Positions 29,901 to 54,721 of a DNA stretch of 64,000 bases are shown here, in pieces; position 1 is the first letter of the stretch, and each line of letters starts with the position of its first letter. The translations under genes and the position numbers were made by a program. The notes under the pieces were generated by a model, which saw only the letters and a list, made by a program, of their open reading frames with translations, was not told the origin of the DNA and made no database searches. The DNA is from Rhizophagus irregularis (Eukaryota), in NCBI RefSeq assembly GCF_026210795.1, contig NC_089432.1, forward strand, positions 1,674,001-1,738,000. The letters are read 5' to 3'.

Positions 29901-31947
29901 CAAAGTATTTAATTGTTCTTAGAATTAATGGTTAATTATAAAAGTAAACTCAATTATGGTTACAAAGCCGTATCTTGCTGAAACGCCGAAGTCCGAAATT
30001 ATTTCAATGAATTAATTTACTTAATAGCCGAAATTATATCCAAAATTATTTGAATTCTTTAACCTAAAATATACTAAATTGCATAGTTATTTTAAATTCT
30101 TTTATATAAAAAATATTTCAAATCCGAAATTCTTGCGAAATTACATTTTTTCAAAAATCAATTTAAAGGCCATCTATACATACTGTATGACAACATTTTC
30201 TTCGTGAATTTATTTTTTTATATTGTGATATAAGAAAAGGAAAACATGGACGAAATCGAGATTGAAATAGACGAACGCATAAAAGAAAGTGAATCTGTTG
30301 ATGATCTGGAAAGTGGGAACCATACAAATGAAGAAAAAATTAATCATATAGCAGTTAGCCCAGACGGTTCGATTGTAGCAACGTTTAATCCAGGTAAGTT
30401 ATAATATTATTTTATGTATCAATTTTTATATTAAAAGTATGAAGTTATATTCCTCTAAACTTATTTTTTTCAGATGGTACTTCCATATCAATTGCAAAAG
30501 TAGCAACAAATTACAAGGCAAATAAACAATTTAATATAAATAAATTCAAAAAACCAACTAATATTCTTGGATGGTCTTTAGCAGTTTCGGACATAATCGA
30601 TACTGAAAGTGAAACTTGTTTGGTTGCAATTTCTTGTGTAACTAATAATGACATAAATCTAAAAGAAATTGAGGAAGGCAGTCTTCGAGAATTATATAGA
30701 TCATTTCAAATTTTTATCAAAAAACAATTATCATTCTGGGATTCCCAACTCTTTTTAATCTTATTATTTATTTCATATATTGCTATCTCTACTTTTATCC
30801 CTACTTTTATTTTGAATTTTGACAGCACCTTTGATAAATCAAATCTTTTCTTTTACCTGTTTTTTGTTATCATTACCATTTGCACTCTTTTCTATTACGA
30901 ATATACTCACATTCGTAAAATTCTAGGAACCGATATTAAACAATTTCGATTATCCTGTACTTCTGGTGAAGGGATGATAAAACTTTTTATGTATTCATTT
31001 AACAATGATGATAATAACAATAACGATTATAACAACAATTCGATATGTCATATTGGTGGAGCACTTACCTTTTTAAAAAATTCTAAAAATTCATTAAAGA
31101 ATGTTGCAACTCTAATTTGCATGAATTGTGTAAAAATACAAAAGATTAATGTCAAATTGAACAAAAATATCTCTATATCAAAAGAAGGTACCTATTTATT
31201 ACCAGAAAATTTATTTAAAAAATTAGAAAGCATTGATGATTCAAGACGCAATTGGAAATATCTTTTAAAATCTAGGTTTCAGGAATATTTAGTGGTTAAT
31301 ACAAGCAATTACCAAAAAATAAATATTGAAATATATAATGTAAATAATTTACAATTAGTGAATGTTTTTTATAGGAATCGTGAAGAAAACCTTTTAATTA
31401 CAAATGATAACGAACCTAGAATTTTTGCGATATCAACTGATTCAAGATTATTTGCTTATTCTTATGGAGATAAAATTATTACACTTTATTTAATGGAAAA
31501 TGGTCTTGAAGTTGTTTCAAAAAAATTTGACAACATTTATAAAATTAAATTTTTAGAATTTATTGAAAAAGATAAAAAATTATTCATTATTGAAGAGAAT
31601 AAAGAACATGATGTGAAATTTCATATTTGGATTATATCAGGATGTTTAAATGATTATTTTTCTATTTCTAAAGATGATATTGGTTTATCGGATAGTAATA
31701 TCCCTACTCCGTCAAAATATGATGAGCATTTCTACTATACTCTGGCAAAAGCAAATGGAAAAGTTGTTTTTCATAATAAAGATAATGAGGATCAGTTTAA
31801 AGTTGTACATGAGATAATTACAAAAAGGACAACCTTTGGAGAAGACGACACTGTAGTTGATGAGCATGAATATAAATCATATGATCTAGAACCATGGAAT
31901 AATAGTACAAAGAATGTTCGAGGTACAGTGCGGTACCTCTATAATAG

Positions 31948-33871
31948 CCCTATGAAAAAAAATCATCCAATTTTTGTACAATATTTGTTCAAGTCCGTAT
32001 GGAAATTGTACAATTATTGCAGATTTTTGGATAAAAATAGCTATGAAGTTTTTCATAGCATATTAAAAGTATGCAATTTTTGTACAACTTAAATTTAGGA
32101 TATAGAAAATGTTCAATTTTTGTGTGATCTTTATACAACTTAAATTTAGAATACAGAAAACATTCAATTTTTGTACAATAAAAATTGTGATTATTGTACA
32201 ACCCCTATGAAAAAAAATCATCCAATTTTTGTACAATATTTGTTCAAGTCCGTGTGGAAATTGTACAATTATTGCAGATTTTTGGATAAAAATAGCTGTG
32301 AAGTTTTTCAAAGCATATTAAAAGTATGCAATTTTTGTACAACTTAAATTTAGGATATAGAAAATGTTCAATTTTTGTGTGATTTTTATACAACTTAAAT
32401 TTAGGATACAGAAAACATTCAATTTTTGTACAATAAAAATTGTGATTATTGTACAACTTGAAAATAGACTTAAATTTAGGATACAGAAAGCAATTTTTAG
32501 GTAATCCTACTATACTACTTTCCATCTTACCTGTATGGTTACATTTGACCACTTTTAGGGTCGAATTAAGGTTGCTTGTCTAAACCTCTTCAAAATCCTA
32601 CGATTAGTTTCGTCAAAATTTTACTATAGATTTATTATAGTTTCGGCAGAGTTTCGGCAGTTTCGGCATTTATAATAAGTTTCGGCAGTTTCGTCTTTCT
32701 CCAAAGTTTTGCCAGTTTTTTAATATAACTTTAATATAGTTTCGGCAGAATTTCGCTTTTCGGCGAAACGCCATCTTGCCTAAACCCCTAGGTTTCGGCA
32801 AGCAACCTTAGGTCGAATAGACCACTTTTAACCATTACAAATAGATTTTCCTAAGTAAAGTGATTTATGCAGTAAGGTTACACAAAATTCAACTGCATAT
32901 TTGCTTATAAACGGGCATCTTCCGGACCCATTGGTGAAATTTTTGTATCATCTTGTAACTAAAAAAAAGTCAAAAACTTTTTATTAGGTTACACAATTAG
33001 TTCTGACCGGAATTATAATTTGGCCAGAATTATGCGGTAAAAATCAACTCTTAAAATTATATATGTTGATCACGTGATCTGATCGTCAAAATAAATATGA
33101 TGACGCGAAATGTTTTTGTTTATGTTTTTTTAACCTTTTAACTTTTCTTCAACTTTCTTTTAAAATATTAAGTAAGAAAAACTTGTGTTCTTTATTTTTT
33201 TATTTTCCTAACTTTTTACATTTTAATGTTATTAACTTGCTTTCTTCACTAACTTCATACTTTTTTTTATTACTAATACTAATAATTTACTTTTTAACAC
33301 TACTAATTTGCTTTCTTCACTAACTTCATACTTTTTTATTACTAACACTATTAATTTACTTTTTAACACTACTAATTTGCTTTCTTCACTAACTTCATAC
33401 TTTTTTATTTAATACTAATAATTTACTTATACTAATAATTTACTTTCTTCTTTGATACTACTAATTTACTTTCATGTTACTAACATACTTTATTTTATTT
33501 TATTTTCTTACAAATTTTTATATTTATGATTATATCAAATTCAGTATTTTATTTATGAAATATTGTGTATATTTTTTATATTTTAAGTCAATAAAAAAAA
33601 TTCATAATTTCACTTTATAAATTGCCTGTTATTACTGTAAAATTTAACCTATAATTCCTAAAATATGGCCTAAAATTTGGCTCAAAAATCACACAATAAT
33701 TGTATAAATTCAGGTCAAAAATAGGATAATTATTGAATGAATTACCATGCAATAATTGTGTGATTTATTGCAATTTTTAGCACAATTATTGTATGGTCAA
33801 ATATACAGAAATCGTAGTGAATTTAATTGAATGATTTTTCAACAAAAATCACACAGACTTTTTTCATAGGG
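31948..33871. mobile_element. Non-autonomous TIR element with CCC...GGG termini (CMC/EnSpm-like, superfamily uncertain)
   Basis: CCCTATGAAAAAA ... TTTTTTCATAGGG; the first 255 bp are tandemly duplicated (second copy starts 32203); TTGTACAA/ACAATWATTG subterminal repeats. Confidence 0.75.
32567..32810. mobile_element. hAT-like MITE nested in the CCC element
   Basis: TIR TAAGGTTGCTTG / CAAGCAACCTTA; 8-bp TSD GGTCGAAT; internal GTTTCGGCA repeats. Confidence 0.9.
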
Positions 33872-36226
33872 TATAATGATTTGGAGTTATGTGATGACTT
33901 GGAATTAGAAGACACGTATCTAAAATCGGCCAATGATTTGACATTAGCTTTAAAATTTTGTCAAGGTAACATTTTTAATTTCTTTGTTATTTACTATATA
34001 TTTTGACAACCAATTTCATTATTAGATCGAGATGCTGTTATGTTAGCATATTTATTAGAATATTACTCTGAAAATTCTATGACTCATATTGGCTGGATGA
34101 TTAATGTTACAAAAATACTTCCAGAGTTATCAGAATTATCTAATCATGATTATTATGGTATAATAATGTATTTGTTATTCAATTAATATTATTATATGTA
34201 TATATATTTCATTAAAAAAGATATTATTTTTTATTCATATAGGTAATTATATGGATTTAATACTCTATAAACCTTGTTTTGGAGAAATGAAGTACAATTT
34301 TCCAATTAAAAAATTCCGAGCGTTATCAGTTTGTCAAGATACATTAGAAGTATATGTACCTCTTACTAATCTTTTATCAACAAATTCTTCGGATCTTTTT
34401 TTATATAATAAAATGAGGTATACATCATATAATCTAATTAATTTTAGATCTTTTACTGATGATATTTCTTAATACAGGGAGGATATATTGCCCAATACTT
34501 ATATGGTTCCACTTCCAAATTTTACAACACATGATGCAAAAATTGAAGGAAAATCCAAAAAAGGAATTATACCTTTTTTGAAAAAAACATTTTTTCCACC
34601 TGGCTATAAGAACTTTGGAGACGAAAAATTTAGCCCATTTCTTCAAATTAAAAAAAACGAAGAAGTATTTTTTAGCATTCCAGCAATAGAAGCAGCTATA
34701 AATTCAAGATGGCATCAAGCAATGGCATATTGGATAAGACCATTATGTTTATATGCTATATTTTTAATTCTGTTTGCTATTATTCTTCAGTTTTACAAAG
34801 TACAAGATGTAACTGAATTTACGCAAGTCGGAAGCGGAATATTTTATTATATTGGATTATATCTATTAGTAAATGAATTTATGCAAATAAGGAAGTATAA
34901 GGTCAAATACATTACAATATTTAATTTATTTGATCTAAGCAGTATTATTTTGGGTATGATTGCCGTTTCTTTGGATTTTGTTTTTTTCGTACCCATTATT
35001 TATACAGTAGTTACATTGATACTTTGGATTGAAATGGTATGGTTTATGACTTTTGGATACTAATTTTTAATAATTTTACATTAATTTATCTTTACTTTCT
35101 AAAGCTCTTATGGCTTCGATTATTTTCAGTAATAGCCATAAATATTTTTATTTTTGGAAATCTTTTGAAAAAGATCACACCATTTTTTACATTTATGTTT
35201 ATTTTAATAATTGGATTTGCGAATTCAATGTAATAGTATTCTTGTTTTTATTGTTATATTAAGCATGATATTAAAGAAAATTAACTTTATTTTATATTTA
35301 TATGCAGAATTTTTCTTCTTGTAACCCCATCAAATTTAACTTATACATTAGAAGATAAAAATGCAGAATATAGTTTCACAGGTCCAATTCAAGATAATCC
35401 TGTTGATACAATATGGAATGCTATACTTTCCATGTACTATTTGAGTACAATTAATTTGAATAGTTATAGCGATGATTCGCTATTTAAGCTATTTATTTTT
35501 GTTGCTAATGTTGTTATAGTTCTTGTTCTATTTAATATGATTATTGCATTGATGAAGTAAGTAATATATTTACTAAATAGTATTTGTTTAAATGCTTATC
35601 TGACCTTTAAATTTATGTTTAGTGACACATTTAAAAAAGCCAAAAATGATGGTAATATTGGACTTTTGATGTACAGAAAAGAACTTATTGATGATTTTGA
35701 AAGACTTGATATTCCCTTTAATAAACTTCAACTACATGATTCACCATATATTTGTTATCTTCAGGATCCTAACTTGATGAAAAAATGGATGAAAAAATCT
35801 CAAGAGCTTAGAAAAACAAAATTGTATTCATGGTTTAAAGAGAGTGTTGATAAAGAAAATATAACTTATGATGGAGTTGACATTACACCTTGGTATAAAC
35901 TTATTTTAAGTAATGAGAATCAAGATTCTATATCAACTCCTGATCATATGACACTTTGGTTCTAGTTCTTTTACTTTTATTTTTATACTTAGATTATATT
36001 GTATTTATTTTGATGTACTTTTTATTTTATTATTATTTATTCATTAAAGAATTAATTAACATGATATTATTTGATTAAATTTTAAAATAAATCTTTATTT
36101 TGTTCAATCTCTATATATACGAAAGTATGAAATTAAGTATATTTTAAATATATTTTAAAGTATACTTTTAGTGTATAAAAATATACTTTACTGAAACCCA
36201 TGAAATCGCGACTATGTAGTAGCCAT

Positions 36227-36855
36227 TGTAATGCCGTAGTATATCTAGTAAATTTATTAATTGTGAGGCGCAGTATTACATTTAGTCTTAGTGTATAAAA
36301 TTTTAACTTATTTTTATTTTTATTTTAATTGGACCGAAAAGTCGTTAAACTATTAATCATGAGAATCAAGGATAATTGGTCTGTGATGACCTTAAACTAT
36401 TAGTCACGAGATTTAAGGATAAATGAAGATCCGAAAGATACTAAATTGGATGAAATCAAGTGATCTGAGGTGTCAAGTGATTAATTTGTTGATCACTACG
36501 TTAATATTATAAATCATAATTCAGGAGTTCATGATGATCAAATGGATACAAAATTAAGATAATGGAAATACTTTAAGATAATGGAAATACTTTAAAATAA
36601 TGGAAATACTTTAATAATTTAAATCCATGAATCGAAATTATGAATTTAGTTACACAAAAACAAACATAAAAGGGCGTGAAGATCAACTATTGAAAAAATA
36701 GAGAAATTGGACGAATTTTGTTATGAATTATTTATTTTGTTATTTAATGTTATTAAACCAAGCATATTATTGTATTTATTTATATTATGAATAAAGAGTC
36801 ATTTTGTTAATACCTGAGGTGGCAAACATAATTCTCTATGGGCTCAGGTGTTACA
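36227..36855 (+). repeat. 5' LTR
   Basis: TGTAATGCC...GGTGTTACA; matches the 3' LTR except T36382 versus C46759 by eye. Confidence 0.98.
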
Positions 36856-36857
36856 AG

Positions 36858-36874
36858 TGGTGCATGCTCCGAGA
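36858..36874 (+). promoter_or_regulatory. Primer binding site, probably tRNA-Gly
   Basis: TGGTGCATGCTCCGAGA lies 2 nt after the LTR; it is the complement of a tRNA 3' end ...TCTCGGAGCATGCA-CCA. Confidence 0.85.
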
Positions 36875-37448
36875 AAGGAAAAGTGATCATCCTCACATGA
36901 TCACTACAGGTTATAAGTACAGGATCTCTGAGAAAAGAAAATGATCACCCCCACGTAATCATTAGAAGTTACAAATAAAGGATCGACGAAGTTAAGGAAT
37001 TATAAAATTAAAAGTTCTAAGTCTTGGTTAAAAAAGAATTTAAGGTGTATTAACGTTAAATTTTAATAAAATAAAGTTAAATATTTTTAAGGATACGTGA
37101 AAATAATGGTTACCAAGGTAAAAGGTATTAATTTGGGTGAGTATGACCATAAATGTATAAAGAGATAATGTTAAAAATTAAATTTTTGATCTAACTTGAC
37201 CACCGGCTGATAAGTCAATGAAAAATTATTATTGCAATAATTTTCATACATATGAACCAAATATGTATGGTAGTAATTGATTATCAAGGGAAATGCGAGG
37301 CTAATCAAGTTAGAAGGGGTTTTAATAGAATATTGTAAATAAGTTCCATGAATTAAGGATTAAAAATAATTTTTATAAATAATTGAGGTTAAGTTAAGGA
37401 TAAAAAGTGTACCCAAAAACCGACACTATAAATACGATGGTAGGGTAA

Positions 37449-37657
37449 TTCTGTGTGAACTCAATTGAGGTTTTCTGTGTGATCAATTGAGAATAGTTCT
37501 GTGTGAGCTTTTTCTGTGTGAACTCAATTGAGGTTTTCTGTGTGATCAATTGAGAATAGTTCTGTGTGAGCTTTTTCTGTGTGAACTCAATTGAGGTATT
37601 CTGTGTGATCAATTGAGAATAGTTCTGTGTGAACTTTCAAAAACAATTCTGTGTGAG
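37449..37657 (+). repeat. 63-bp x3 tandem repeat with ~10 TTCTGTGTGA motifs in the element's 5' leader
   Basis: Directly visible periodicity. Confidence 0.9.
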
Positions 37658-37771
37658 GGTACCCAAGAAGAATCATGATTAACGTTAACGAAAATAAAAA
37701 TAATATTTGCTGGACAAATATATTCAAGGAAAGTTATAAAAAGGTGAGGAATTCGATCTCTCACCCATAAA

Positions 37772-38455
37772 ATGGAATACAAAATCAATTTAACAAAAGA
37801 GGATTCAGAAAAATATTTGTGTAAAGGAAAAGGAATTAAATTAAAAATTTATAATGAAGACAATAAGGCCATCAGTCTAAAGACCATCTATGATGTTAGA
37901 CCACCCAAGAAAAAGAAAAAGAGATGTTTGACCTGTGATAATAGAGAACATGTGAAAAGGACCAAAAGTGAGAATAAAGTGGAAAGATTTATAAATGAAT
38001 TGTTGACACCGGTAAATGTGGAAGACCTATTGATACCAGAAATACAAAATGTAGAAATTCATGATGTTGAAAAATTAGTAGAAAGATACATCAGTCTTGG
38101 AAATACAAATGGTAAAAACATCTTAATATGGTACAATATTGGACAAATTTTTGAACGAGAAATTAAAGCAAGAATAAATCAAACAAAGCCAGACCAGACA
38201 GCTAGAGAAGAATTATATGATGAAATGATGGAATTTATAGTTAATGAAAGTACTGATGAAAAACAAAAGAAGAAGGAAGCATTAAGGAAAAGGATGCAAG
38301 GAGCTATAAAAATATATAAACTTTTTACTGAAATTGGTCAAGATAAGATATATAGAGTAAAGGAAACATTTGTAACGACTATTATAAAATTGACAAATCC
38401 GGAAATACAACAAATAATCGGACAAATCAAATATGGATTCACACTTCAACCTTAG
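37772..38455 (+). CDS. Retrotransposon accessory ORF1 (227 aa), function unknown
   Basis: Intact ORF with AAAATGG start, basic PPKKKKKR (NLS-like) segment, CxxC and a helical C-terminus RKRMQGAIKIYKLFTEIGQDKIYRVK. Confidence 0.8.
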   Translation: MEYKINLTKEDSEKYLCKGKGIKLKIYNEDNKAISLKTIYDVRPPKKKKKRCLTCDNREHVKRTKSENKVERFINELLTPVNVEDLLIPEIQNVEIHDVEKLVERYISLGNTNGKNILIWYNIGQIFEREIKARINQTKPDQTAREELYDEMMEFIVNESTDEKQKKKEALRKRMQGAIKIYKLFTEIGQDKIYRVKETFVTTIIKLTNPEIQQIIGQIKYGFTLQP

Positions 38456-38619
38456 GTTGGAAAATTTTATGGAATATAAATTTATTTGTACAAACCTGTA
38501 AACTACCATACTCAGTAATGAACAAATGAGGTAAAGGCAAGCCCAGTATAGGTCAAATAAAATATAAAAGAAGGATAAAAAGTAAAAGACGTGAAAATTT
38601 TTAGAGAATTTTATTAAAA

Positions 38620-41600
38620 ATGGAATGGTACCATGTTTGGAACGCTGGATATATAAACCATAAACAGGAACATGACCTAGGAGTGATAGAACCAGAGGAA
38701 TGTTTAGCATGTGAAATATGTAACCCAATAGAAAGAGAAGTATCAGCGGCATTCAAGAAATTTTGGGATGTTTTATTTAAATTCGAGGATACAATACTAA
38801 TGTACAATAATGTAACACATAAAGAATTATTGAATTTATTAAGTATGGACAATAGAGAAAGGGAGGATACAATACATAAAGGAAAATGTAGGAATATAGT
38901 AGATAGAATAATTGAATCAATAAGGTACAGACAACAACCAAAAATGAAAGAAAAAGGTTTAAGGATAATAATTGTAGTAATTGTAAGGGATTGTATTGAA
39001 GGAAATTTGGAAAATGAAGTATTTGACCGGTTAATTGGATGTCCAGAAATAATGGAACATGGATATATTTTGGAAGATTGGGATATTGAAAACAGATTTC
39101 AAAAATTTTGGGAATGGTACGGTTCAATATTAGAATTTGGGGTGGAAGTAATCCATGCGACACCAGAAACAATAGTAATATTCAGGGAATTATTATACAT
39201 GGAAGAAATCATAACTGAAAATATAGGAAAAGTAATTGATTTAACGAATACAATTGTTTACAGGAACCCATTAAGAGAGGGAGAATCAAAACAACAAGAA
39301 TGGGAAAGATTGATACAGAAAGTGTTACAAAGATTTATTGACACCAAACAATTTACAAGGGAACCTGAGGACCCAGAAAGTGATAGTCCTGAAAGTTATG
39401 AATTAGAGGACAGTGATGGTAGTATACATTATGAAATAAAAATAGAGGATGATGTCAAATGGACAGTGGAATCATTAAAAAGAAAAATTGAAGAAATGGG
39501 TGGAAGGTTCACCGACAAAGATATACAAAGAATGTGGGACCTAAGGATAAGGATAGAATTGATATTAACAGAGGACTTTTTAGGTACATTTTTCGAATTA
39601 ATGGGACTAAGTGATGAAAAATTAAAAGATGAAATAAATGAATGGTTAACAAAAGAAACATTAATATGTGGAAATTGTAGGAATAGAAAGTTACCTGATA
39701 TGATAGCAGACATTGGACAATGTAAAAATTGTGAACAAGAAGTATTATTAGAATTAAAGGACGACTTAGAAAAACTAGGGTACGAATTAAATGTGTCAGA
39801 AATAGGGAGAATAAGAGAATTCAGGATAAGCAATAGTATAATATTAACAACGGAATTTATGGAAAAATATCTCCAGGAAATTGATACGAATGACAAAGAA
39901 TTAAGGATAAAATTATATGAATGGATAAATGAAAATACCACATTTTGTGATGAATGTGGAATAAGATGGATGAACAATAAATTTGACGAAGGAAAAACCA
40001 AGTGTAGGGATTGTGAAAATGACGAAAATGAAATTGATATCAGGGTTAAAAGATTAAAACAAATATGTGATGATAATAAAATAGGAATAACTAATGGAGA
40101 GTTATTGAGGTTAATCAGTATGGGATATACTGATGGAGAAATACTGGATCAAGAATTTATTGAAATATTCCAAGGAAATAAAAATGAAATGGAGAAAAAT
40201 TTAAGGCGAATATTAGATAAATTTCTAAAACAGCAAGCTGGAATTGAGGATAGTGAAAGTAGTGGAAATGAATCTGATAATGAAAAATCTGATGGATCTG
40301 AAAAAGAATCAGATGGATCTGGAAAAGACGGAGAAATTTTAAATCCAAATGATACCGATAACAATGAAAATTTTGAAGAACCTTATGAAGAAAACATTAT
40401 AAATAGACCTGGTTTTGACTCAAGTGAAAGTTCAGAATCAAACCCTGAGGATAAAAGTGAAATATCTGATTATAATATAGAAAATTTATTTGAAACACCT
40501 TTAACACCACCGATACCACCAATTCTACCAATAGTACCAATAATTATAGGAGCAACAAGAGCTGAAGTAAGGGAAGATTTTAGAGCGGCTTTACTAGCAG
40601 CAACAGGACATGATATAGGAGGTAATTGGGCTGGATTAGTCGCAGCCAATCCATTAGCAAATGCAATTGAGGATGCAGGAAATGTAGCTGGAGGAATAAT
40701 TAGTATGCCACAATTTTATGGAAGGGAAGAAGAAGACATAAACGATTGGGTAAGACAATTTGAAACAGCATTTACTGCTATAGGAAAAGCAGCAGGAGTA
40801 AATGGAGCTAGACAAGCAGCAATGGCAGCTACCTGTTTGAAAGGTGCAGCAGCACAATGGTATAATGAAAAGAAGGAAGCAAACAATGGTCATTTGGTAA
40901 ATTGGCAAGATAACGATAATGATAATGATTTAAAACATAGGATTAAACAACGATTTACCAGGGAAGATGTTAGAAAAAGGAAAATGTTAGAATTAAGGAA
41001 AATAACACAAGGAGTAAATGAAAATGTTGAGGCATATACGATAAGGTTTAGACAAATATTAAGGATAGCTACCAGAGGCCATGCATTAGATGATGAATTA
41101 CAAGTGGATAATTATATCGAAGGATTAACACCAACATTGGGATATCAAGTCAGAAGACAAAACCCAGCAAATTTAAATGATGCAGTAAATACAGCAAGGA
41201 GAGAAGAGGAAGCTACTAATGAATTAATGAGAAAAACACTTAATATACCAATTAATACCCAAAGAAAAGGAATCGATATACAAGACGACAAGCCAAAGAA
41301 TATATTTGAAAAACCATTGGAGAAAAATTATGAGGATGACCTTGCCGACATGTTTAAAAAATTAGAGGTAAAACTAGTAAATCAACTTGGAGGGCAAAAG
41401 AGACCACCAAACAATAACAATAGACAAGGACCACCACCTCGAGCATGTTATAATTGTAAACAACCAGGACATTATGCAAATGAATGTAGGGTAAATAATG
41501 GTCAAAGAAACTATGGAAGACCAAATAATCAAAATTATAATAGAAGATCAAATAACTATAATGGAAGACCAAATAACTATAACAGACCACCAAACCACCA

Positions 41601-42204
41601 AAACAATAATCGAGGATTCAATGTAGTGGAATATGATAATTATAATGACCAATATGACCAATATGATTATGATAGTCAGGATTATCAGGATAATTATGAC
41701 CAAGGATATAGTTATGATGACCCGTATTACCAAGATAATGATGTAACATTTAACCATGTTGATCAAGATTTTTATATTGGTGAAAGACAAACGAGAAGTA
41801 ACATAAAGAATAGGTCAAGTAATCGAGATATAGATATGGAAATTGACCAAGAACAAACACGAAGAAGGAATAATAAATATGCAAGCCAAGAGGAAAGGGC
41901 AGCAGCATTACCAAAAAGAGGATTCACTGATGAAAGTCTGAGGAAAGCACAAGAAGCAAGGAGAAATAATAATACATGTAGAAATTGTGGACAAAGAGGT
42001 CACTATGCAAAACAATGTAAAAATGAACGTGTTGAAGGTATCCATAGGACAAGCGCATTTCAGAGGAACATACCAGAATATAACATAATAGAGGATCTGA
42101 AAAATACCAGAGCAAATGCAACCTTTTCACAAATTATAAACATGAGTCCAGAGCAAAGGAAAATATATTATGAAGGAATGAGAAGGTATCCACAAACAGA
42201 TTGA
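38620..42204 (+). CDS. gag: Gag polyprotein with a long N-terminal extension (1194 aa)
   Basis: Ty3-type capsid from ~40705 (PQFYGREEEDINDWV...LKGAAAQWY...QGVNENVEAYTIRF...YIEGL); two CCHC knuckles CYNCKQPGHYANEC and CRNCGQRGHYAKQC. Confidence 0.93.
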   Translation: MEWYHVWNAGYINHKQEHDLGVIEPEECLACEICNPIEREVSAAFKKFWDVLFKFEDTILMYNNVTHKELLNLLSMDNREREDTIHKGKCRNIVDRIIESIRYRQQPKMKEKGLRIIIVVIVRDCIEGNLENEVFDRLIGCPEIMEHGYILEDWDIENRFQKFWEWYGSILEFGVEVIHATPETIVIFRELLYMEEIITENIGKVIDLTNTIVYRNPLREGESKQQEWERLIQKVLQRFIDTKQFTREPEDPESDSPESYELEDSDGSIHYEIKIEDDVKWTVESLKRKIEEMGGRFTDKDIQRMWDLRIRIELILTEDFLGTFFELMGLSDEKLKDEINEWLTKETLICGNCRNRKLPDMIADIGQCKNCEQEVLLELKDDLEKLGYELNVSEIGRIREFRISNSIILTTEFMEKYLQEIDTNDKELRIKLYEWINENTTFCDECGIRWMNNKFDEGKTKCRDCENDENEIDIRVKRLKQICDDNKIGITNGELLRLISMGYTDGEILDQEFIEIFQGNKNEMEKNLRRILDKFLKQQAGIEDSESSGNESDNEKSDGSEKESDGSGKDGEILNPNDTDNNENFEEPYEENIINRPGFDSSESSESNPEDKSEISDYNIENLFETPLTPPIPPILPIVPIIIGATRAEVREDFRAALLAATGHDIGGNWAGLVAANPLANAIEDAGNVAGGIISMPQFYGREEEDINDWVRQFETAFTAIGKAAGVNGARQAAMAATCLKGAAAQWYNEKKEANNGHLVNWQDNDNDNDLKHRIKQRFTREDVRKRKMLELRKITQGVNENVEAYTIRFRQILRIATRGHALDDELQVDNYIEGLTPTLGYQVRRQNPANLNDAVNTARREEEATNELMRKTLNIPINTQRKGIDIQDDKPKNIFEKPLEKNYEDDLADMFKKLEVKLVNQLGGQKRPPNNNNRQGPPPRACYNCKQPGHYANECRVNNGQRNYGRPNNQNYNRRSNNYNGRPNNYNRPPNHQNNNRGFNVVEYDNYNDQYDQYDYDSQDYQDNYDQGYSYDDPYYQDNDVTFNHVDQDFYIGERQTRSNIKNRSSNRDIDMEIDQEQTRRRNNKYASQEERAAALPKRGFTDESLRKAQEARRNNNTCRNCGQRGHYAKQCKNERVEGIHRTSAFQRNIPEYNIIEDLKNTRANATFSQIINMSPEQRKIYYEGMRRYPQTD

Positions 42205-42744
42205 CTACAAGAATCAATGAACAACATTGAAGCAGAACATTTAACTGCATTAAGGGGTAAATTAATAATAAACCAAGAATTAAAGGACGTAATGTTTGAT
42301 ACAGGAGCAGCAGTAAATGTAATAACTAGTCAGATAATGGATGAAATGGACCTAAAAATTGAGGAACCGAGTACAGTAAGATGTGTGATGATAAATGAGG
42401 ATAAATTAGCATCTAGGGGTACCACGACAATATACATACAATTTGGGGATAAAGAAATACCCATTAAGGTTGAAGTAATTGATTCAGGAAAAAACGAAAT
42501 TGTGTTAGGAAATGGAGTATTAGATATGTTCAAAGCAAATATAGATTACACAGATAAAACAATAATAATTAGAATGAATGATGAAACTATGGATATACCA
42601 GTAAAATACACACAAAGGACCATTAAAGGGTTTGAAGAAACATTTGATGAAGAGGAAATATTAGAAGAATTATACCAGGATGAATTGTATAACATATATG
42701 AAGATGACCATGAAGGTCAGGAAGATGAAAATTTTAAAATATAA
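42205..42744 (+). CDS. Aspartic protease, in frame with gag behind a single TGA
   Basis: FDTGAAVNVI catalytic motif and IVLGNGVL; same frame as gag. Confidence 0.9.
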   Translation, partial: LQESMNNIEAEHLTALRGKLIINQELKDVMFDTGAAVNVITSQIMDEMDLKIEEPSTVRCVMINEDKLASRGTTTIYIQFGDKEIPIKVEVIDSGKNEIVLGNGVLDMFKANIDYTDKTIIIRMNDETMDIPVKYTQRTIKGFEETFDEEEILEELYQDELYNIYEDDHEGQEDENFKI

Positions 42745-44219
42745 GTCTTGGTCAGAATGATACTGAAGAGACGATAAAGAAGCACAAAAGTGACCATGAA
42801 AAATTTACTGAAAAATTTAAAGTAGGGGACATAACCAATGAACAAAAAGGTAAATTAAAAGTATTAGTAGAAAAATATAAGGATATATTTGAGTACGATG
42901 GTGAAAAATATAATAGGACAAACCTAGTAAAACATGAAATCAGATTAAAAGGGGGTACTGAACCATTAGCCCAAAAGAGGTACAAAGAAAATGATGAAAA
43001 AGGTAAATTCATCAGAAAAGAGGTTGACGAGATGTTAAAATTGGGAAAAATTAGAGAATCTAGAAGTCCATGGTCTTCACCAGTGACTTTAGCAGGGAAA
43101 AAGTCGGGAAATTATAGATTTTGCATCGACTATAGAAAATTAAATAAAGTTACAATAACAGATGCATATCCATTACCGAGGATTGACGAACAATTAGAAA
43201 GGATAAGTTCAGGAAAATGGTTTACCAGTCTAGATTTAGCATCAGGGTTTAATCAGATAGAAATGGCTGAGGAAGATATTGAGAAAACAGCATTCATATG
43301 CTCAGCAGGATTATATGAATATAATGTCATGCCATTTGGGTTAACAAATGCGCCTGCAAGTTTTCAAAGGTTAATGGATAAAGTATTAAAGGAGTACCTA
43401 AATGAATTTGTGATAGTATACATTGATGATATAATGATATATTCGGAAAATTTTGAAGACCACCTAAAACACATAAAGTTAGTGTTAGAAAAATTAAAGG
43501 AAGCCAGTTTAATACTAAAGTTAAAGAAATGTATATTTGGGAAAACAGAAATAGAATTTTTAGGACATGTAGTTGGTAAAAATGGATTAAAACCAAGTCC
43601 AGGAAAGGTCGAAAAGATACAAAAATTAACAGCACCTATAAATATAAAAGGTGTAAGGTCAATATTAGGGTTATGTACGTATTATAGAAAATTTATTAAA
43701 GATTTTTCAAAAATAGTAAAACCAATAACATCTTTATTGAGAAAAGATGAAAAGTTCGAATGGGGCATCAAACAACATGAAGCATTAGAGATATTAAAAA
43801 GGAAATTAACCGAAGAACCGGTGTTAAGACAACCAGATTGGTTAAGGAAATTTATATTAATTACAGATGCTTCAGGAGTAGGATTAGGGGCAGTGTTAGC
43901 TCAAAAAGATGATAAAGGTCAAGAATATGTAATAGAATATGCCAGTAAAAGTTTAAACAGGACAGAACAAAGATGGCCAATAACCGAACAAGAATGTTAT
44001 GCAATTGTATGGGGAATACAACATTTCCATAAATACTTGATCAATAGAAAATTTGAGGTAGTAACAGACCATGCAGCTTTGAAGGGATTAATGACTGCAA
44101 AAGTACCAAAAGGAAAGAGATCAAGATGGGTCATGGAATTGGAACAGTATGATTTTGAAATAACCCATAGACCAGGAAAAGAAAATAAAAACGCAGATGC
44201 CTTATCAAGAATAATATAA
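42738..44219 (+). CDS. pol: Reverse transcriptase-RNase H (frame open from 42738, -1 relative to protease)
   Basis: VKHEIRL..PLAQKRY, SPWSSPV, RFCIDYRKLN, LDLASGFNQI, MPFGLTNAPASFQ, YIDD, TDASGVGLGAVL, EQECYAIVW, TDH, NADALSR. Confidence 0.97.
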   Translation, partial: NISLGQNDTEETIKKHKSDHEKFTEKFKVGDITNEQKGKLKVLVEKYKDIFEYDGEKYNRTNLVKHEIRLKGGTEPLAQKRYKENDEKGKFIRKEVDEMLKLGKIRESRSPWSSPVTLAGKKSGNYRFCIDYRKLNKVTITDAYPLPRIDEQLERISSGKWFTSLDLASGFNQIEMAEEDIEKTAFICSAGLYEYNVMPFGLTNAPASFQRLMDKVLKEYLNEFVIVYIDDIMIYSENFEDHLKHIKLVLEKLKEASLILKLKKCIFGKTEIEFLGHVVGKNGLKPSPGKVEKIQKLTAPINIKGVRSILGLCTYYRKFIKDFSKIVKPITSLLRKDEKFEWGIKQHEALEILKRKLTEEPVLRQPDWLRKFILITDASGVGLGAVLAQKDDKGQEYVIEYASKSLNRTEQRWPITEQECYAIVWGIQHFHKYLINRKFEVVTDHAALKGLMTAKVPKGKRSRWVMELEQYDFEITHRPGKENKNADALSRII

Positions 44220-44255
44220 ATAGATGGGTAAAAGAGTTACTTTTCAAAAATAAAA

Positions 44256-44495
44256 ATGGAACAAGTGGTAAGAAATACAAATCATAAAATAAAGGATATA
44301 ATCGAAAATTTAGAAGGTATAACAAAGGAATTAAACAGGATAAAGTATAACTATAAATTCAAAGCCAAAAATTTTGAAGATAGTGAAGAAAGACCATTAA
44401 TATTGGAAACTCAAGAGGAAATATTACAAATAGGGGTGATATTAAGTAAAGTAAACAAGCTAAAATTATCAGAATTATGTAAAAATGGGACCTAA
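44256..44495 (+). CDS. Small accessory ORF (79 aa, predicted coiled coil) between RNase H and integrase
   Basis: AAAATGG start; heptad-like IKDIIENLEGITKELNRIK; overlaps the next ATG by 11 nt. Confidence 0.55.
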   Translation: MEQVVRNTNHKIKDIIENLEGITKELNRIKYNYKFKAKNFEDSEERPLILETQEEILQIGVILSKVNKLKLSELCKNGT

Positions 44496-46266
44496 AATAA
44501 TAATCATATGTGGAGTTGATGGTACTGGAAAAACATTCATTGTAAATAAACTTATAAAAGAATTTGAAAAAGTAGGACAAAGTGTGAGGTTTAACACCTT
44601 TAAAAGGAGAAGAGAGGACAATGATAAGTATAAAATACCAAAGAAAGGTATAGAATGGGAATTCAGGAAGGAAGTTGTCGAACAAATCAACAGGAGAATG
44701 GAAGAACATGATAATGAAGATTGGTTAATATTAGATAAAAGTCCCTATAGTGAGTACTTTTATCAACAAACACCATCATTCGACAGAGGATACATAACAA
44801 GATATGAGAACCACCTATTAGAAAAGGAAGTATTTAGGAACAAAAGGATAATTGATGAATCAATAGTGATATTTTTAGAAAATGAAAAATGTTGGGAAAA
44901 TTACAAAGGTAGAGAACATTCGAAAAAGGATCAAGGACATAAAACATCATATCCATTATTAGATGAAGAAAGATATATGGAGATGGTGAAATCATTTAAA
45001 GAATGTCAAGATATTTACGAAGGAGAAAAATATGCTAATATTAAAATATCGAATAATGACACAGATTGGGAAAGAGTATATAATAAAGTAATAGAATTAG
45101 ATGGAGATAAACCACCAATAGAGGTTAAAAATGTTGAGATTAAGGATAACATCAGAGTAACTGATGGTAAAAAGCATATTGAGAAAAATGGTAAAAATAT
45201 AAGAATAATAGAAGACTTTGAAAAGATGGGAGCACTATATTTAGCTCACAGTCATGAATTATCAGCACATATGGGAATCAAAAGTACTTATGATAATTTA
45301 AAAGATAAATATTATTGGGAAAATATGCTGAATGATGTTGAAAGATATGTAAGGACATGTGATGAATGTCAAAGAAGAGGAAAACCACAAGGGAAAAATG
45401 AATTACACCCAATTAAAGTAGTAGAACCATGGTATCAAATCGGGATCGACTTTGTTGGACCATTGAACACAACAACAAATGGTAATAAGTACATCATAGT
45501 AGCAATGGATTATTTTACAAAATGGCCAGAAGCCAAAGCAGTAAAGGAAGCAACTGCCAAAGAAGTATCAAAATTTATTTATGAAGACATCATTTGTAGA
45601 CATGGATGTCCAATGAAAATATTGAGTGATAGAGGAAGTCATTTCAATAATGAAATGATTAAAGAATTAATGGAAAAATTCAAAATTAAATGGAATTTTT
45701 CTACAAGTTATCATCCAGAGACAAACGGACTTGTTGAAAGATTCAACCGAACATTAGGTCAAGCATTAGCAAAATTATCAACCAAAGATGATTGGGATCA
45801 AAGGATAGCACCCATATTATTTGCTTACCGAAATAAAAAGCATAGTTCAACAAGAATTCGACCATTTTATTTAACATACGGAAGAAATGTACGGACAATA
45901 ATGGATGAAAATATCAAAGAAATTAACCTAAGTGATAGAATAGTTGGATTATTAGAAGAACTACCAAAAATCTGACATGAAGCCAAAGAACAAATACTGA
46001 AATCTCAAACAAAACAAAAAGAGTATCATGACAGAAAAATAATCAAAGAACACACCTTTGGAATTGGAGATAAAATACTACTCTATGATAAAGCCAAAGC
46101 ACAACAACTATCGGGAAAATTAGAATCAAAATGGTTGGGACCATTTTACATTCATGAAATACTACCGAATGGAGCTTATAGAATTAAAAATATTAAAGGT
46201 GTCATCAAGAAGATACCTGTAAATGGAGAATTATTAAAGACTTACCATACACCGATGAGTAAATGA
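44485..46266 (+). CDS. dNMP/thymidylate-kinase-like P-loop domain fused to integrase (internal TGA at 45973-45975)
   Basis: N-terminal IIICGVDGTGKT and LILDKSPYSEYFY; HHCC (AHSHELSAH..CDEC); DDE core (GIDFVGP, SDRGSHF, VERFNRT); after the TGA the same frame continues with a GPY/F domain (GKLESKWLGPFYI) to TGA 46264-46266. Confidence 0.92.
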
Positions 46267-46498
46267 TAACTATCATCAATGGACTTAGAAAAATAAAGAT
46301 AATTTATAATCATGTGAAATAAAATCACATGACATAAAAATAATTTTCGAAAATAGGAAAAACTAATGAAAATTTCCTAAGAAAGACCAAAGTGAAATCC
46401 GGTACAAGAAAACCGTAGACTTAACAAACACATGATAAACCGCAGATGTAGACGCAGCAAAAAGGAATATTTAAAACGCAGCTGAGTCAAGTGACAAT

Positions 46499-46589
46499 GC
46501 ATGTTTGATTTAGTGGTATAATTCGCACCTACCACTTCGAGACACGAGTTCGATTCTTAGAATAAATTTAATGTGGGCATTAAATTTTT
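46499..46589 (+). ncRNA. Degenerate tRNA-Gly-like sequence with Pol III A/B boxes, hairpin and T5 inside the retrotransposon
   Basis: GCATGTT-TGATTTAGTGGTATAATT-CGCAC-CTACCAC-...-GAGTTCGATTCT; then hairpin AAATTTAATG/CATTAAATTT and TTTTT. Confidence 0.65.
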
Positions 46590-46591
46590 AT

Positions 46592-46602
46592 GCGGGGGAT
46601 AG
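46592..46602 (+). promoter_or_regulatory. Polypurine tract
   Basis: GCGGGGGATAG immediately before the 3' LTR. Confidence 0.8.
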
Positions 46603-46603
46603 T

Positions 46604-47232
46604 TGTAATGCCGTAGTATATCTAGTAAATTTATTAATTGTGAGGCGCAGTATTACATTTAGTCTTAGTGTATAAAATTTTAACTTATTTTTATTTTTAT
46701 TTTAATTGGACCGAAAAGTCGTTAAACTATTAATCATGAGAATCAAGGATAATTGGTCCGTGATGACCTTAAACTATTAGTCACGAGATTTAAGGATAAA
46801 TGAAGATCCGAAAGATACTAAATTGGATGAAATCAAGTGATCTGAGGTGTCAAGTGATTAATTTGTTGATCACTACGTTAATATTATAAATCATAATTCA
46901 GGAGTTCATGATGATCAAATGGATACAAAATTAAGATAATGGAAATACTTTAAGATAATGGAAATACTTTAAAATAATGGAAATACTTTAATAATTTAAA
47001 TCCATGAATCGAAATTATGAATTTAGTTACACAAAAACAAACATAAAAGGGCGTGAAGATCAACTATTGAAAAAATAGAGAAATTGGACGAATTTTGTTA
47101 TGAATTATTTATTTTGTTATTTAATGTTATTAAACCAAGCATATTATTGTATTTATTTATATTATGAATAAAGAGTCATTTTGTTAATACCTGAGGTGGC
47201 AAACATAATTCTCTATGGGCTCAGGTGTTACA
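46604..47232 (+). repeat. 3' LTR
   Basis: 629-bp direct repeat of 36227-36855. Confidence 0.98.
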
Positions 47233-48479
47233 CCATGCTGCCGCCACTTAACGTAGTAGGCGTACGGCTACTCTATATTAATTCTAACGCAGTTGTATGT
47301 ATTTAATATAGAAAATATATAGTAGATTATCATCATAATATAGAAATTGTATCGCCAATACAAAGAAACTATATAAATGTTAGCTAGAAACTGTATAAAT
47401 GATTTAAAGTAATGATATATGTGATTTGCATTAAACATGTAGTAAATTCATAGAAAATTTGTATTAACTTTATAATAAATATGCAGTAAATACATAATAA
47501 GTATATAGTGAATTCATAGTAAATACATAATAAATATATAACAAATTGCAGTAAATATATAGTAAATTCACAGTAAATACATTAAATATATAATAACAAA
47601 TTCATAGATATGAGTCTGATCACATTCCAAAAATCGTTAAGTATGGCGCAGCAAAATTGCGCCAAGTTCTCATGAACGAGACCCGGGAAATAAATTTGGA
47701 TGGGACGCATGATTAGGTGGCGTAGTCAGCCAAGCTGATTGGGCAGAAACTTTACTGCGGTATTTTTGGGACCCGAATGCGGAACCTCGTGGCGATGGTG
47801 TCCTAGCCAGCTAACGGAGATGTAAAATGTACTGATTGTAGGAAGTGTCTGGGGTATTTTACTACAGTCTCTTCTAATAATACGTAAGAAATAATTTCTG
47901 GTCGGACTTATCCTACGTAATTCGTCCCTTCGGCGTTTTTTTTGAAATTTCACGGATGCTCCTAATACAAATATTTCCAATAATTACAGGACACTATTTA
48001 CCAATATATATGGAAACCAGAACGTGAATGGTTCAAAACCTTTCAACTCCTCAAAAAAAGACAAATCCATTATCAACGTCGCTCAAAGAAAATTCGTCAT
48101 ACGGTAAACACAATCCTGCAACCACATCCACTTCATTACACCATACTCTCCGAGGTAATTCTCCGATCTCACTCAATCCTATGTCATGTGTCCCTATCTA
48201 CGTACCCTCGAAGAAAAAAGAAAAACACTTCATCTTTCCTATGAAGCTCGTAAATAACACCTCTCTACCGACGACGCGTTCATTAAATGGACGTTATCAA
48301 ATTATTCGCAGGCACTTGGATGTCTCATAGAAATATAGATAGATTTTTTTTTCTTTCGTATATAGAAAGTGGATTAGGTAATGAGGAATAAAGTGTATAG
48401 AATTATTAAAAAAATCGCGTTCTAAAGTTCACAGAAAGAGAAGTGAAAAGTTAATAACAATCACTGAAAGTAAATAAAT

Positions 48480-50570
48480 CTAAATAATCTAAATTAAAAA
48501 AACGAACTTATCATAGTTCGTTCTTTTAAATCCTGGTCGTTTAGCTTCGTCTCACGTCCAGGTTTCCTAAAAATAAAAGAAAGGGAATGTTAATAACGTT
48601 CCCTTAAGTAAAAAATAAAAATAGAAATAAAGAAACGAACTTACCATAGTTCGTTCTTTTTTTTTAAATCCTGGTCGTTAACGTCTTAACGATTTCGTTC
48701 GTCTAAGTTTCCTAAAAATAAAAGAAAGGGAACGTTAATAACGTTCCCTTAAGTAAAAAAAATAAAAATAAAAATAAAAAACGAACTTACCATAGTTCAT
48801 TCTTTTTTTTAAATCCTGGTCGTTAACGTCTTAACGATTTTGTTCGTCCAGGTTTCCTAAAAATAAAAGAAAGGGAACGTTAATAACATTCCCTTAAGTA
48901 AAAAAATAAAAATAAAAATAAAGAAACGAACTTACCATAGTTCGTTCTTTTTTTTTAAATTCTGGTCGTTAACGTCTTAACTTCGTTCGTCCAGGTTTCC
49001 TAAAAATAAAAGAAAGGGAACGTTAATAATGTTCCCTTAAGTAAAAAACCTAAGTAATTAATAGCGCAAGTAAAAATTAAAAAAAAAACCTAAAAAAAAG
49101 AAAAATGAACCCTTACCGCCTAGTTCGTTCTTTTTTTAAATCCTACGTTAACGTTCGATTAACGTTCGTTCATCCAGGTTTCCTAAAAATAAAAAGAAAG
49201 GGAACGTTAATAACGTTCCCTTAAGTAAAAAATAAAAATAAAAATAAAAAAGCGAACTTACCATAGTTCGCTTTTTTTTAAATTGTTCGTTTTTTTTTAA
49301 CGTCTTAACGTCGTTAATCAGGTTTCCTAAAAATAAAAGAAAGGGAACGTTAATAACGTTCCCTTAAGTAAAAAAATAAAAATAAAAATAAAAACGCTTA
49401 CCTAGTTCGTTCTTTTTTTAAATCCTGGTCGTTAAAAGTCTTAATGATTTTGTTCGTGGTTTCCTAAAAATTAAAAAGAACGTAACGTTCCCTTAAGTAA
49501 AAAAATAAAAATAAAAATAAAGAAACGAACTTACCATAGTTCGTTCTTTTTTTTTAAATTCTGGTCGTTAACGTCTTAACTTCGTTCATCCAGGTTTCCT
49601 AAAAATAAAAGAAAGGGAACGTTAATAACGTTCCCTTAAGTAAAAATAAAAAAAAAACCTAAAAAAAAGAAACGAACTTACCATAGTTCGTTCTTTTTTT
49701 TTAAATCCTGGTCGTTAACGTCTTAACGATTTCGTTCGTCCAGGTTTCCTAAAAATAAAAGAAAGGAACGTTAATAATGTTCCCTTAAGTAAAAAAATAA
49801 AAATAAAAATAAAGAAACGAACTTACCATAGTTCGTTCTTTTTTTTAAATCCTGGTTGTTAACGTCTTAATGATTTTGTTCGTCCAGGTTTCCTAAAAAT
49901 AAAGAAAGGGAACGTTAATAACGTTCCCTTAAGTAAAAAATAAAAATAAAAATAAAAAATGAACTTACCATAGTTCGTTCTTTTTTTTTAAATCCTGGTC
50001 GTTAACGTCTTAATGATTTTGTTCGTCCAGGTTTCCTAAAAATAAAAGAAAGGGAACGTTAATAACGTTCCCTTAAGTAAAAAAATAAAAATAAAAATAA
50101 AGAAACGAACTTACCATAGTTCGTTCTTTTTTTTTAAATCCTGGTTGTTGACGTCTTAACGACTTCGTTCGTCCAGGTTTCCTAAAAAAAGAAAGGGAAC
50201 GTTAATTACGTTCCCTTAAGTAAAAATAAAAAAAAAACAAACAAAAGAAACGAACTTACCATAGTTCGTTCTTTTTTTTTAAATCCTGGTCGTCAACGAC
50301 TTCGTCCACGTCCAGGTTTCCTAAAAAAAAGAAAGAGAACGTTAAATTACGTTCCCTTAAATAAAAAAATTAAAAAAAACCTTAAAAAAAAGGTTCTTTT
50401 TTTTTAAATCCTGGTCGTTAGGCTTCGTTCGTCCAGGCTTCCTAATAAAAAAGAAGGAACTATTAATTACGTTCCCTCAAGTAAAAATAACAAAAAAAAA
50501 GAAACGAACTTACCTAGTTCGTTCTTTTAAATCTTGGTCATCCTGCGTCCGTTCGTCCAGGAAAGGGTTT
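48480..50570 (-). repeat. ~146-bp tandem array (~15 units) with an exon/intron-like unit on the minus strand
   Basis: Unit contains GAACTTACCATAG...CCAGGTTTCCTAAAAATAAAA...GGGAACGTTAATAACGTTCCC; the minus strand reads TTTTTAG|GAAACC...CTATG|GTAAGT. Confidence 0.9.
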
Positions 50571-52420: not shown

Positions 52421-53365
52421 TTATAATGCATTTCATAATGTCTAAATTTTACAATGATTCGACTGATTCGTACTAGTACTATAATACATTTTAATAATAC
52501 TATACATTTTAATTAATACATTTTAATTTATTTTCGAATATAATTCATTAAAATTAAAAATGATTTATCGTCGCTATATAGAAGATATGAAGTGAAAAGC
52601 TAGAATCTATATAATTCCATAATTTTTCTAAAAAAAATAATTGTATTTTTCAAAAATAAAAACGTATTTATCAAAATTAAAAAATAATTAAAGTTTCATA
52701 TTACCTTCATGTGGAAAATGTAAAGTAGTGAGGTAGAAACTGGACAGTCGAAACGAAAAAAATGCCACTAGTGATCGACTCTATAGTCACATGATAGTCA
52801 CATGCCAGAAGTGTTATAGTTGCTAAATCCGAGGTTTCAGCAAAGTACTTATAATGTACTTAAACTTTTGTTATTTTTAATATCCGGCCAAGCTAATAGA
52901 GAGAATTTTACTATTTCATTTATTTTTATTTTATTTCACAATATCAGTAACAAGTTACTTAGAGTAATTTGGAGAACTTACAAAATGAAAACTGTAAAAA
53001 AGCCACCCTAAGATGGTGTTTCTCTGATAGAAGGGAAGGAAAGGACTGCTATAGTAACTATAATACACTACCTGATACTATAGTTCTCAACAGGATCGCA
53101 ATCTATAAGATCTACATTTTCTTTCAAATCCTGAAACATAAACGCACACAAATAAAGTTGATATTATTCCACCATCATCACTTATGGAAGTCACCTAACT
53201 AGATGTTTGATAAAAACTCAGAAAACGCGATCATCAATCTTATTATCGATCTTCACTCCCATTAAAACCTCTTCAAGTTACAGACATCCAGAATGTATTG
53301 AACAGCTAGTACATGGCATGCTTAGTGTAATGGAATTATGATTTGTTAATTAATGTAAATATTTA

Positions 53366-53737
53366 GGCCACTCCAATTTAATAGTTTGTTTAACGTACCC
53401 CACCCCCCTCATTTTTGAAAAATTTTTAAAAATAAACAAACATATGTTATATCACGTGACTTATAATAACATCACCGATTTGTATATTATTTAAAAGAAT
53501 TTCTTTCCAGTGTAATTGAATCTACCAAAGAAAATGGTATAATTAATAAAAGTAATATATGTAAACTTATTAATTGCATTATCTGTAATAAATTAAGATG
53601 TATTTTTAGTAAAAATGCATTGAGTGATAAAGAAAAAACTATGTTTATTTTTAAATGTTTACTTAATTTGACCCCCTTCCTCCCTCAATTTTTATATAAA
53701 ATTAGGACGTTAAACAAACTATTAAATTGGAGCAGCC
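53366..53737. mobile_element. PIF/Harbinger (Tourist-like) MITE
   Basis: TIR GGCCACTCCAATTTAATAGTTTGTTTAACGT / ACGTTAAACAAACTATTAAATTGGAGCAGCC; TTA on both flanks. Confidence 0.85.
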
Positions 53738-53959
53738 TTATTTTAAAAAATGAATTCTTTGAAGTTAGCAAATATAAACATGTAAAATTTCTATATACTT
53801 GCGCAGTTTTTCGTCACCATTCACAATTTAATAAACAGCAACTAATATTTTAGTCTTAATATATGATGATGTTAATCGTACTAGAAATTTGAAAATTGTA
53901 TTGTTAATTATAGAGGGACATTTAAAATTAATTAAGATGATAGGAACTTAGATAGGTAT

Positions 53960-54335: not shown

Positions 54336-54721
54336 GGCAGCAAAATAATAATATTATTAAAGTTCAACACAATGTCTACGAGAATTTTATAAAGAATTAA
54401 ATCAAATTCATTACAGGAGGAATATAACCAATATTTCGTTTAAACATAATGATATAGTAGGACCCTGAGCAATGTGTAAATAAGTCATAGGAAATTAGAC
54501 TGGAAATTAGCAAAAACTTATTATTGGCTCTACGCATTTTTTCAGGGCCGGAATTATGATAATGTCAGTCAGCTACTAAAATAAGTAATAAATTCTGACC
54601 AACATTATTTAATATTATCTAAAAAAGAAAAGATTATTATGATTATTTTACTCATATTAAAAGTTTATTGAATTTTAAACTGAAATACAATGATATATTA
54701 AAAATATTCATTGTTTATAAT

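Follow-up and report, generated by a model that had tools for sequence, protein, structure and literature searches.

Retrotransposons with long terminal repeats (LTRs), as well as retroviruses, normally bring integrase (IN) into the particle as a part of Gag-Pol. Those retroviruses in which gag, pro and pol each have their own frame use two serial recoding steps, and foamy viruses make Pol apart from Gag and package it without a Gag fusion; in both, IN is fused to reverse transcriptase (RT). For fungal elements, the available portions of published surveys describe pol as one polyprotein (PMC3248453). Here, we analyze a window of 64,000 nucleotides (the whole stretch of DNA studied, from contig NC_089432.1 of the root-symbiotic fungus Rhizophagus irregularis), in which positions 36227-47232 are a complete, young Ty3/Gypsy LTR retrotransposon of a multi-copy family, of about 11 kb with all of its coding units on the forward strand. 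It resembles canonical Ty3/Gypsy elements (Metaviridae) in its LTRs, target-site duplication (TSD), primer-binding site (PBS), polypurine tract (PPT), zinc-knuckle Gag and the order protease (PR), RT, RNase H (RH), IN. Unlike them, it has its Pol in three open reading frames (ORFs), a self-started IN and a kinase-like domain and small ORFs interleaved with the enzymes; unlike retroviruses and foamy viruses, it has no env and an IN separate from RT. We are highly confident that the modular architecture is real and under selection, both in a Rhizophagus branch of Ty3/Gypsy and in related metagenome loci. In the literature, we found no Gypsy lineage with a separate integrase or a thymidylate kinase, while Repbase, Dfam, GyDB, supplements and online repeat libraries may hold such families; no such layout appears in the accessible parts of repeat surveys of arbuscular mycorrhizal (AM) fungi (10.1101/2021.03.30.436303, PMC11075540, PMC11952901).

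The split pol as a lineage feature

A first-pass annotation of this DNA had proposed six coding units, and we recover all of them, with ORF1 beginning at 37772, Gag at 38620, PR at 42205, RT-RH at 42738, a 79-aa ORF (ORF5) at 44256 and kinase-IN at 44485. The RT-RH ORF (42738-44219) ends in NADALSRII and, as had also been seen, a second in-frame TAA follows soon after (44229-44231). ORF5 (44256-44495) begins 36 nt past the RH stop, and the ATG of the thymidylate/deoxynucleoside-kinase-like domain (44485-45120) lies 11 nt inside the ORF5 end. The integrase (45121-46266), with a zinc finger, a core and an SH3-like end, is fused behind the kinase; neither of its two pieces has a match to the chromodomain, a trait of chromoviruses. 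PR, RT and IN each occupy a different frame and so cannot form one ORF without indels. An in-frame TGA (45973-45975), overlooked in that annotation, cuts off the last 96 codons of the kinase-IN ORF in this copy. Position 45973 is C in the contigs of all four runs compared, and, of the 15 members listed for the kinase-IN cluster, nine are full-length proteins of 593 aa that start with MGPK and come from contigs of nine different lengths; hence, the premature TGA is a private decay lesion of this copy.

The breaks themselves are shared by the family. Contigs that cross them (42178-43927 and 44193-44571 in run X8; 42178-42913 and 43131-44358 in run X4) have no gaps, so that the PR/RT and RT/IN frame offsets are common to the family, and no single-base change at the stops is found among the differences listed for the family contigs. 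Among 30 gene models of the family, 21 include the RNase H end, and every one of these terminates at SRII. We give almost no credence to the explanation that a pol which was once continuous was broken by decay or assembly error and that a non-autonomous subfamily spread the breaks. The private IN stop of this copy and the indels in three related loci (L012, L014, L016) are of the kind that it predicts, but the breaks are common to the family and to relatives whose kinases are 53-60% identical, purifying selection acts on all parts and no RT-RH protein of a clade of 73 rows (see below) carries IN. For the RH/IN split, this explanation is refuted, and no continuous pol was found in the family. 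The youth of the element had been argued from its LTRs, which indeed differ at one of 629 sites (36227-36855 against 46604-47232), and the layout had been held not to be decay on that ground. The conclusion about the split stands; the argument from LTR identity to an intact copy does not, because the IN of this very element holds the private TGA.

A kinase-based scan retrieved 17 metagenome loci with 53-60% kinase identity. The IN start could be located in 14 of these (in two by the N-terminal motif alone, owing to contig ends) and in a further locus, L082, and IN is a separate ORF in all 15. Its Met stands at one conserved place in the 15 loci (M-x-x-x-x-Y, mostly M-x-E-x-E-Y), with an in-frame stop 0-15 codons 5' of it in every locus and within two codons in eight. 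In an outgroup control of 81 Gypsy loci, IN is continuous with RH in 59, separate in three, upstream in one and uninformative in 18, i.e., pol is continuous in 59 of the 63 informative loci; one of the three with a separate IN is L082, which belongs to the present lineage. In L001, L002, L005, L006 and L015, an ORF of 48-52 aa stands between kinase and IN with dN/dS values of 0.11-0.33, which argues that these small ORFs are translated; small ORFs occupy different places among the related loci. Many of the prokaryote-labelled assemblies among L082-L159 hold eukaryotic Gypsy contigs, likely by binning contamination.

In a quick maximum-likelihood tree built from 101 RT-RH rows after exclusion of 32 near-duplicates (SH-aLRT support only), the kinase families form one clade of 24 rows (support 100), nested in a clade of 73 rows (93) in which no RT-RH protein carries IN. 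The sister of the kinase clade (98) is L082, whose IN is separate and not preceded by a kinase. The sister rows, known as protein records only, are mostly continuous Gag-PR-RT-RH proteins that have a Gag N-terminal domain in common with the element. Quick maximum-likelihood trees, with database hits that carry no clade labels as outgroups, group the RT-RH with Gypsy elements, and the element is nested among animal and plant Gypsy elements, to which its RT-RH is 40-47% identical; the canonical layout, with IN within one Pol polyprotein ORF, is not the one found here. Gmr1-like elements have IN 5' of RT, and this layout is likewise absent, as IN lies downstream here and in 15 of 15 related loci. 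The Caulimoviridae, in the descriptions available, also have several ORFs on one RNA, a PR-RT-RH that ends at RNase H, and reinitiation. They differ in having neither LTRs nor integrase, and their RT-RH is 30-34% identical and falls on a distant branch; we reject kinship on the basis of the RT-RH tree and of the LTRs and IN present here, and the likeness is, judging from these comparisons, convergent.

A free integrase in a successful and recently mobile lineage raises the question of its production and packaging. There are also practical consequences: gene predictors patch such elements with spurious introns and enter the pieces as genes of the host, and active copies in AM fungal genomes would be called dead by any repeat pipeline that requires a continuous pol.

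Junction signals and candidate modes of expression

We lean slightly towards a mode of expression in which readthrough, then a -1 frameshift and then stop-restart would make the enzymes. Ribosomes would read through TGA-CTA to pass from Gag to protease, slip by -1 at an AAA codon before a hairpin to pass from protease to RT-RNase H, and initiate ORF5 and kinase-integrase by stop-restart on either the full-length RNA or a shorter 3' RNA; the integrase, without a Gag link, would then be taken into the particle through binding to RNA or protein. The likely recoding signals at Gag/PR and PR/RT had been overlooked in the first-pass annotation.

At Gag/PR, there is a single in-frame TGA followed by CTA (42202-42207), a likely readthrough site that is also present in L010, the sole relative spanning this junction; UGA-CU is a leaky stop context in fungi according to the available part of one study (PMC4207609). 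A stable RNA structure 3' of the Gag stop was considered and rejected (z -1.5 and +0.5). The aspartic protease does have an ORF (42205-42744), as had been claimed, but it need not be separately started, being in the same frame as Gag past the single TGA-CTA.

The PR and RT ORFs overlap by 7 nt, with RT in the -1 frame relative to PR and the first ATG of the RT frame at codon 99. The candidate -1 frameshift signal (42736-42772) consists of an AAA codon, a 6-nt spacer and a predicted hairpin (42745-42772). In all three loci that span PR/RT (this element, L010 and L016), AAGTCTTGG is kept, with a Leu codon seldom used by these elements (6 of 153 in the present one), and it pairs with a conserved GAGAC to give the predicted hairpin, the upper stem of which is variable. 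The hairpin folds in all three (z -2.7, -2.1 and -2.2), and in each an AAA codon of the PR frame lies six bases 5' of it, preceded by TTT in this element and L010 and by GCA in L016. In -1 programmed frameshifting, the stimulatory structure lies 5-9 nt past the slip site. A gene model of Rhizophagus clarus also contains the RT-frame peptide, SLG...ET, that the hairpin arms encode. For this junction, we rejected a +2 hop at ATA-TAA, as it fits this element alone. In the leader, at 37018-37028, TAAGTCTTGGT (the hairpin arm of PR/RT plus flanks) occurs a second time, there without a partner arm, and the TAAGTCTTGGT-associated 9-mer occurs twice in the whole window; a leader-body fusion via this second copy was rejected, there being no in-frame ATG upstream.

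Splicing could instead remove the stops and rebuild a Gag-Pol polyprotein, as in plant Ogre elements; we judge this improbable. Public gene models do bridge Gag/PR and PR/RT with predicted introns, one in-frame GT..AG option (model P0181) ends right before the hairpin, and the accessible part of the work on Ogre/Tat plant Gypsy elements (PMC6317226) offers a precedent that also shares an extra ORF 5' of gag and a PR/RT break. However, as described there, an intron of some 270 bp spans the PR/RT break of Ogre, whose RT, RH and IN stay together, whereas PR and RT here overlap by the said 7 nt and IN is separate. The models of the present family, moreover, use at least five different joins at Gag/PR and PR/RT, the commonest of which deletes the RT-frame peptide conserved across families, and none of the 21 that include the RNase H end has an RH-to-IN splice. 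The conserved IN Met, so often within two codons of an in-frame stop, fits initiation and not an acceptor site, and the candidate intron is purine-rich coding sequence, whereas the host intron compared is T-rich. The predicted introns thus look like gene-predictor patching. No sense GT..AG joint in pol is listed for the four putative-RNA runs, three of which (X18-X20) have no cover over 42056-43030 and sparse cover elsewhere in pol.

For the internal starts, we compiled 28 junctions, excluding L004, the 3' end of which looks duplicated. The start lies within -14 to +11 nt of the upstream stop in 19 and within 30 nt in 21; six overlap as ATGA and one as TAATG, and all three relative frames occur. 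In this element, the kinase starts at -11 nt relative to the ORF5 stop and ORF5 at +36 nt relative to the RH stop. The geometry of the 19 close starts matches that of known termination-reinitiation, of which the TURBS type tolerates a stop-start distance of about 30 nt according to the available part of a review of such systems (PMC10275272). As described in the same source, the SART1 non-LTR retrotransposon, caliciviruses and influenza B similarly have stop and start overlapping or within about 20 nt (UAAUG and AUGA); they differ from the present, putative case in that here the junctions are serial, the modules shuffled and the carrier an LTR element. Local RNA folds at two junctions are both unstable. 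The annotation had proposed an undescribed lineage using subgenomic or spliced RNAs or reinitiation: the lineage-wide split bears out its first part, and, among the mechanisms, stop-start adjacency favors reinitiation for IN. Such natural stop-start junctions would make it possible to test reinitiation after long fungal ORFs; the mechanism has been described chiefly in viruses.

The annotation had further pointed to a shared TAAA(A)ATGG context at 37772, 38620, 44256 and 44485. It is present at all four positions, but it is not a signal of the lineage: only one of 26 scored starts in relatives has it, and it also precedes the PR ATG of L010. RT contains a fifth, out-of-frame TAAAAATGG at 43577. 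The motif is mildly enriched in the element, its count of five comparing with a mean of 1.5 in 500 triplet shuffles, five of which reach five. The start feature common to the relatives is an A-rich context only: 13 of the 28 starts have AAA immediately 5' of the ATG, compared with 9% of 1267 background ATGs. A-rich sequence is the usual strong start context in fungi.

This context also suits another explanation, which we hold to be unlikely on balance, namely that internal promoters give capped RNAs of lesser length (to express Gag, and a 3' block from ORF5 or RT) on which A-rich starts are reached by scanning, the adjacency of stops and starts being compaction. It would account for the widest gaps (36-58 nt) lying right before the kinase block in this element, L009, L013 and L016, the many upstream ATGs would block scanning from the LTR, and the problem of low yield discussed below would be solved. 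Separate promoters, on the other hand, do not require the IN start to lie inside or at the upstream stop, as it does in most loci whether a kinase or a small ORF precedes it, and in this element's family RT has no start codon to be scanned to.

Several points weigh against the favored relay of readthrough, frameshift and stop-restart. At PR/RT, a canonical X_XXY_YYZ heptamer is absent from the PR frame in the three loci, both this element and L010 have TAA at the slip codon when read in the -1 frame, and covariation in the hairpin is not significant over three sequences (59 of 500 shuffles). Moreover, several families (L010 and those of the P0007 and P0023 type) have an ATG shortly past the hairpin position, where RT may start independently. 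Seven of the 28 junctions, including RH/ORF5 here, have gaps of 33-58 nt, and the 28 derive from fewer independent families. The starts of ORF1 and Gag are left unexplained, three short ORFs and 15 upstream ATGs preceding Gag. Restart would follow two leaky steps, so that a low IN yield is expected, and for this reason a shorter 3' RNA may be the template. The stop-start adjacency could also be a relic of one ORF split at domain borders. Lastly, the gene models P0011, P0022 and P0031 fuse kinase or RH to IN; these are probably spliced predictions, as they are without the kinase-end and IN-start motifs.

The kinase and the small ORFs

The kinase matches phage thymidylate kinases (PHROG 761, E 1.5e-13). 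Against Pfam Thymidylate_kin (PF02223; curated cut-off 27), it scores 19.1 bits here and 30.2 bits in the relative P0011. Its structure model (pLDDT 78) matches deoxynucleoside and thymidylate kinases at TM ~0.6 and <21% identity, giving a P-loop together with an NMP-kinase fold, and the P-loop is conserved across 13 aligned sequences. The dN/dS is 0.08-0.28 in the eight pairs, out of 10, that are not saturated. Sequence searches of PDB returned P-loop matches alone, and neither the kinase scan of viral contigs and genome contigs nor a single-protein RT scan of viral contigs gave a match. The domain is thus akin to phage and viral thymidylate/deoxynucleoside kinases in P-loop, fold and PHROG 761, and differs from them in being a putative kinase borne by a retrotransposon, with <21% identity to any solved or modelled member.

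The kinase and the small ORFs shift position between families, a point overlooked before. In L002, L003, L006, L010 and L011, the kinase continues from RNase H as one fusion; L009, L013, L016 and L017 have it as an ORF by itself, and in this element's family it forms a fusion with integrase. ORF5 weakly resembles an ORF of 81 aa that follows the kinase in L011 (pairwise E 4e-05 over 26 aligned residues). One contig in each of the runs X17 and X18 joins both TAAAAATGG motifs (44250-44480) and thereby excises ORF5 exactly, and X17 has a second join at 44235-44477; the joins that remove ORF5 are not GT..AG, and stem either from ORF5-less copies or from a template-switch product.

We infer that the kinase would supply deoxynucleotides to reverse transcription. 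Some sister-branch RT proteins without IN (P0132, P0133, P0153 and P0144) carry NUDIX or dUTPase domains, and a role in the nucleotide pool fits their occurrence there. A retrotransposon nucleotide kinase would widen the theme of captured nucleotide-pool enzymes past dUTPase. As a tentative picture, pol in this possibly undescribed Ty3/Gypsy branch of mycorrhizal fungi might be a eukaryotic operon, in which one RNA and a relay of readthrough, frameshift and stop-restart would yield Gag, protease, RT, free integrase and swappable accessory proteins, and the element's own virus-type deoxynucleotide kinase would feed reverse transcription, as would NUDIX and dUTPase in the sister branches.

Termini, 5' region and surroundings of the element

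The 629-bp LTRs (5' LTR 36227-36855; 3' LTR 46604-47232) are direct repeats with TG...CA ends, flanked by a 4-bp TSD, CCAT (36223-36226 and 47233-47236). A PBS-like sequence that begins with TGG lies 2 nt past the 5' LTR (36858-36873), and a PPT-like sequence precedes the 3' LTR (46594-46602); no tRNA gene was found within the window. With these termini, the domain order Gag-PR-RT-RH-IN and a Ty3-type capsid and RT, the element belongs to Ty3/Gypsy. A contig of run X8 bridges the empty site, joining 36221 to 47232, so that the insertion is recent and polymorphic, and the element proteins are 98-100% identical to Rhizophagus irregularis records.

The long leader (36856-37771) contains the 15 upstream ATGs and a tandem repeat with a unit of about 62 nt (37460-37650). 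Low-depth contigs of X18 and X19 have one GT..AG joint in the leader (37135-37214), and CT..AC joints, possibly from antisense splicing, in 37022-37413 and 43129-43421. ORF1 (37772-38455) encodes a 227-aa accessory protein with 14 homologues at 47-100% identity, all named ones being from Rhizophagus irregularis. It has no Pfam or PHROG match above the cut-off, and its structure model (pLDDT 39.7) is too poor for a fold search. In all four contig runs compared, a variant swaps 69 nt of ORF1 for 2 nt (38011-38081); as this would break the frame, ORF1 looks dispensable in some copies. Gag (38620-42204; 1194 aa) comprises the lineage-shared N-terminal domain, CxxC repeats, a Ty3-type capsid and two zinc knuckles, and a profile built from the N-termini of the sister clade matches its residues 1-118 (E 5e-14).

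Elsewhere in the window, there are three paralogous host genes with hydrophobic segments (~19700-23000, 31200-35965 and 57700-61300), two exons of which have no Pfam match; the element sits about 260 bp behind the second. At 48470-50500, a unit of 143-150 bp that contains palindromes is arrayed in about 13 copies. Two pairs of short inverted repeats (53365-53738 and 54715-55253) are MITE-like, and the latter has related ends near 7286-7494.

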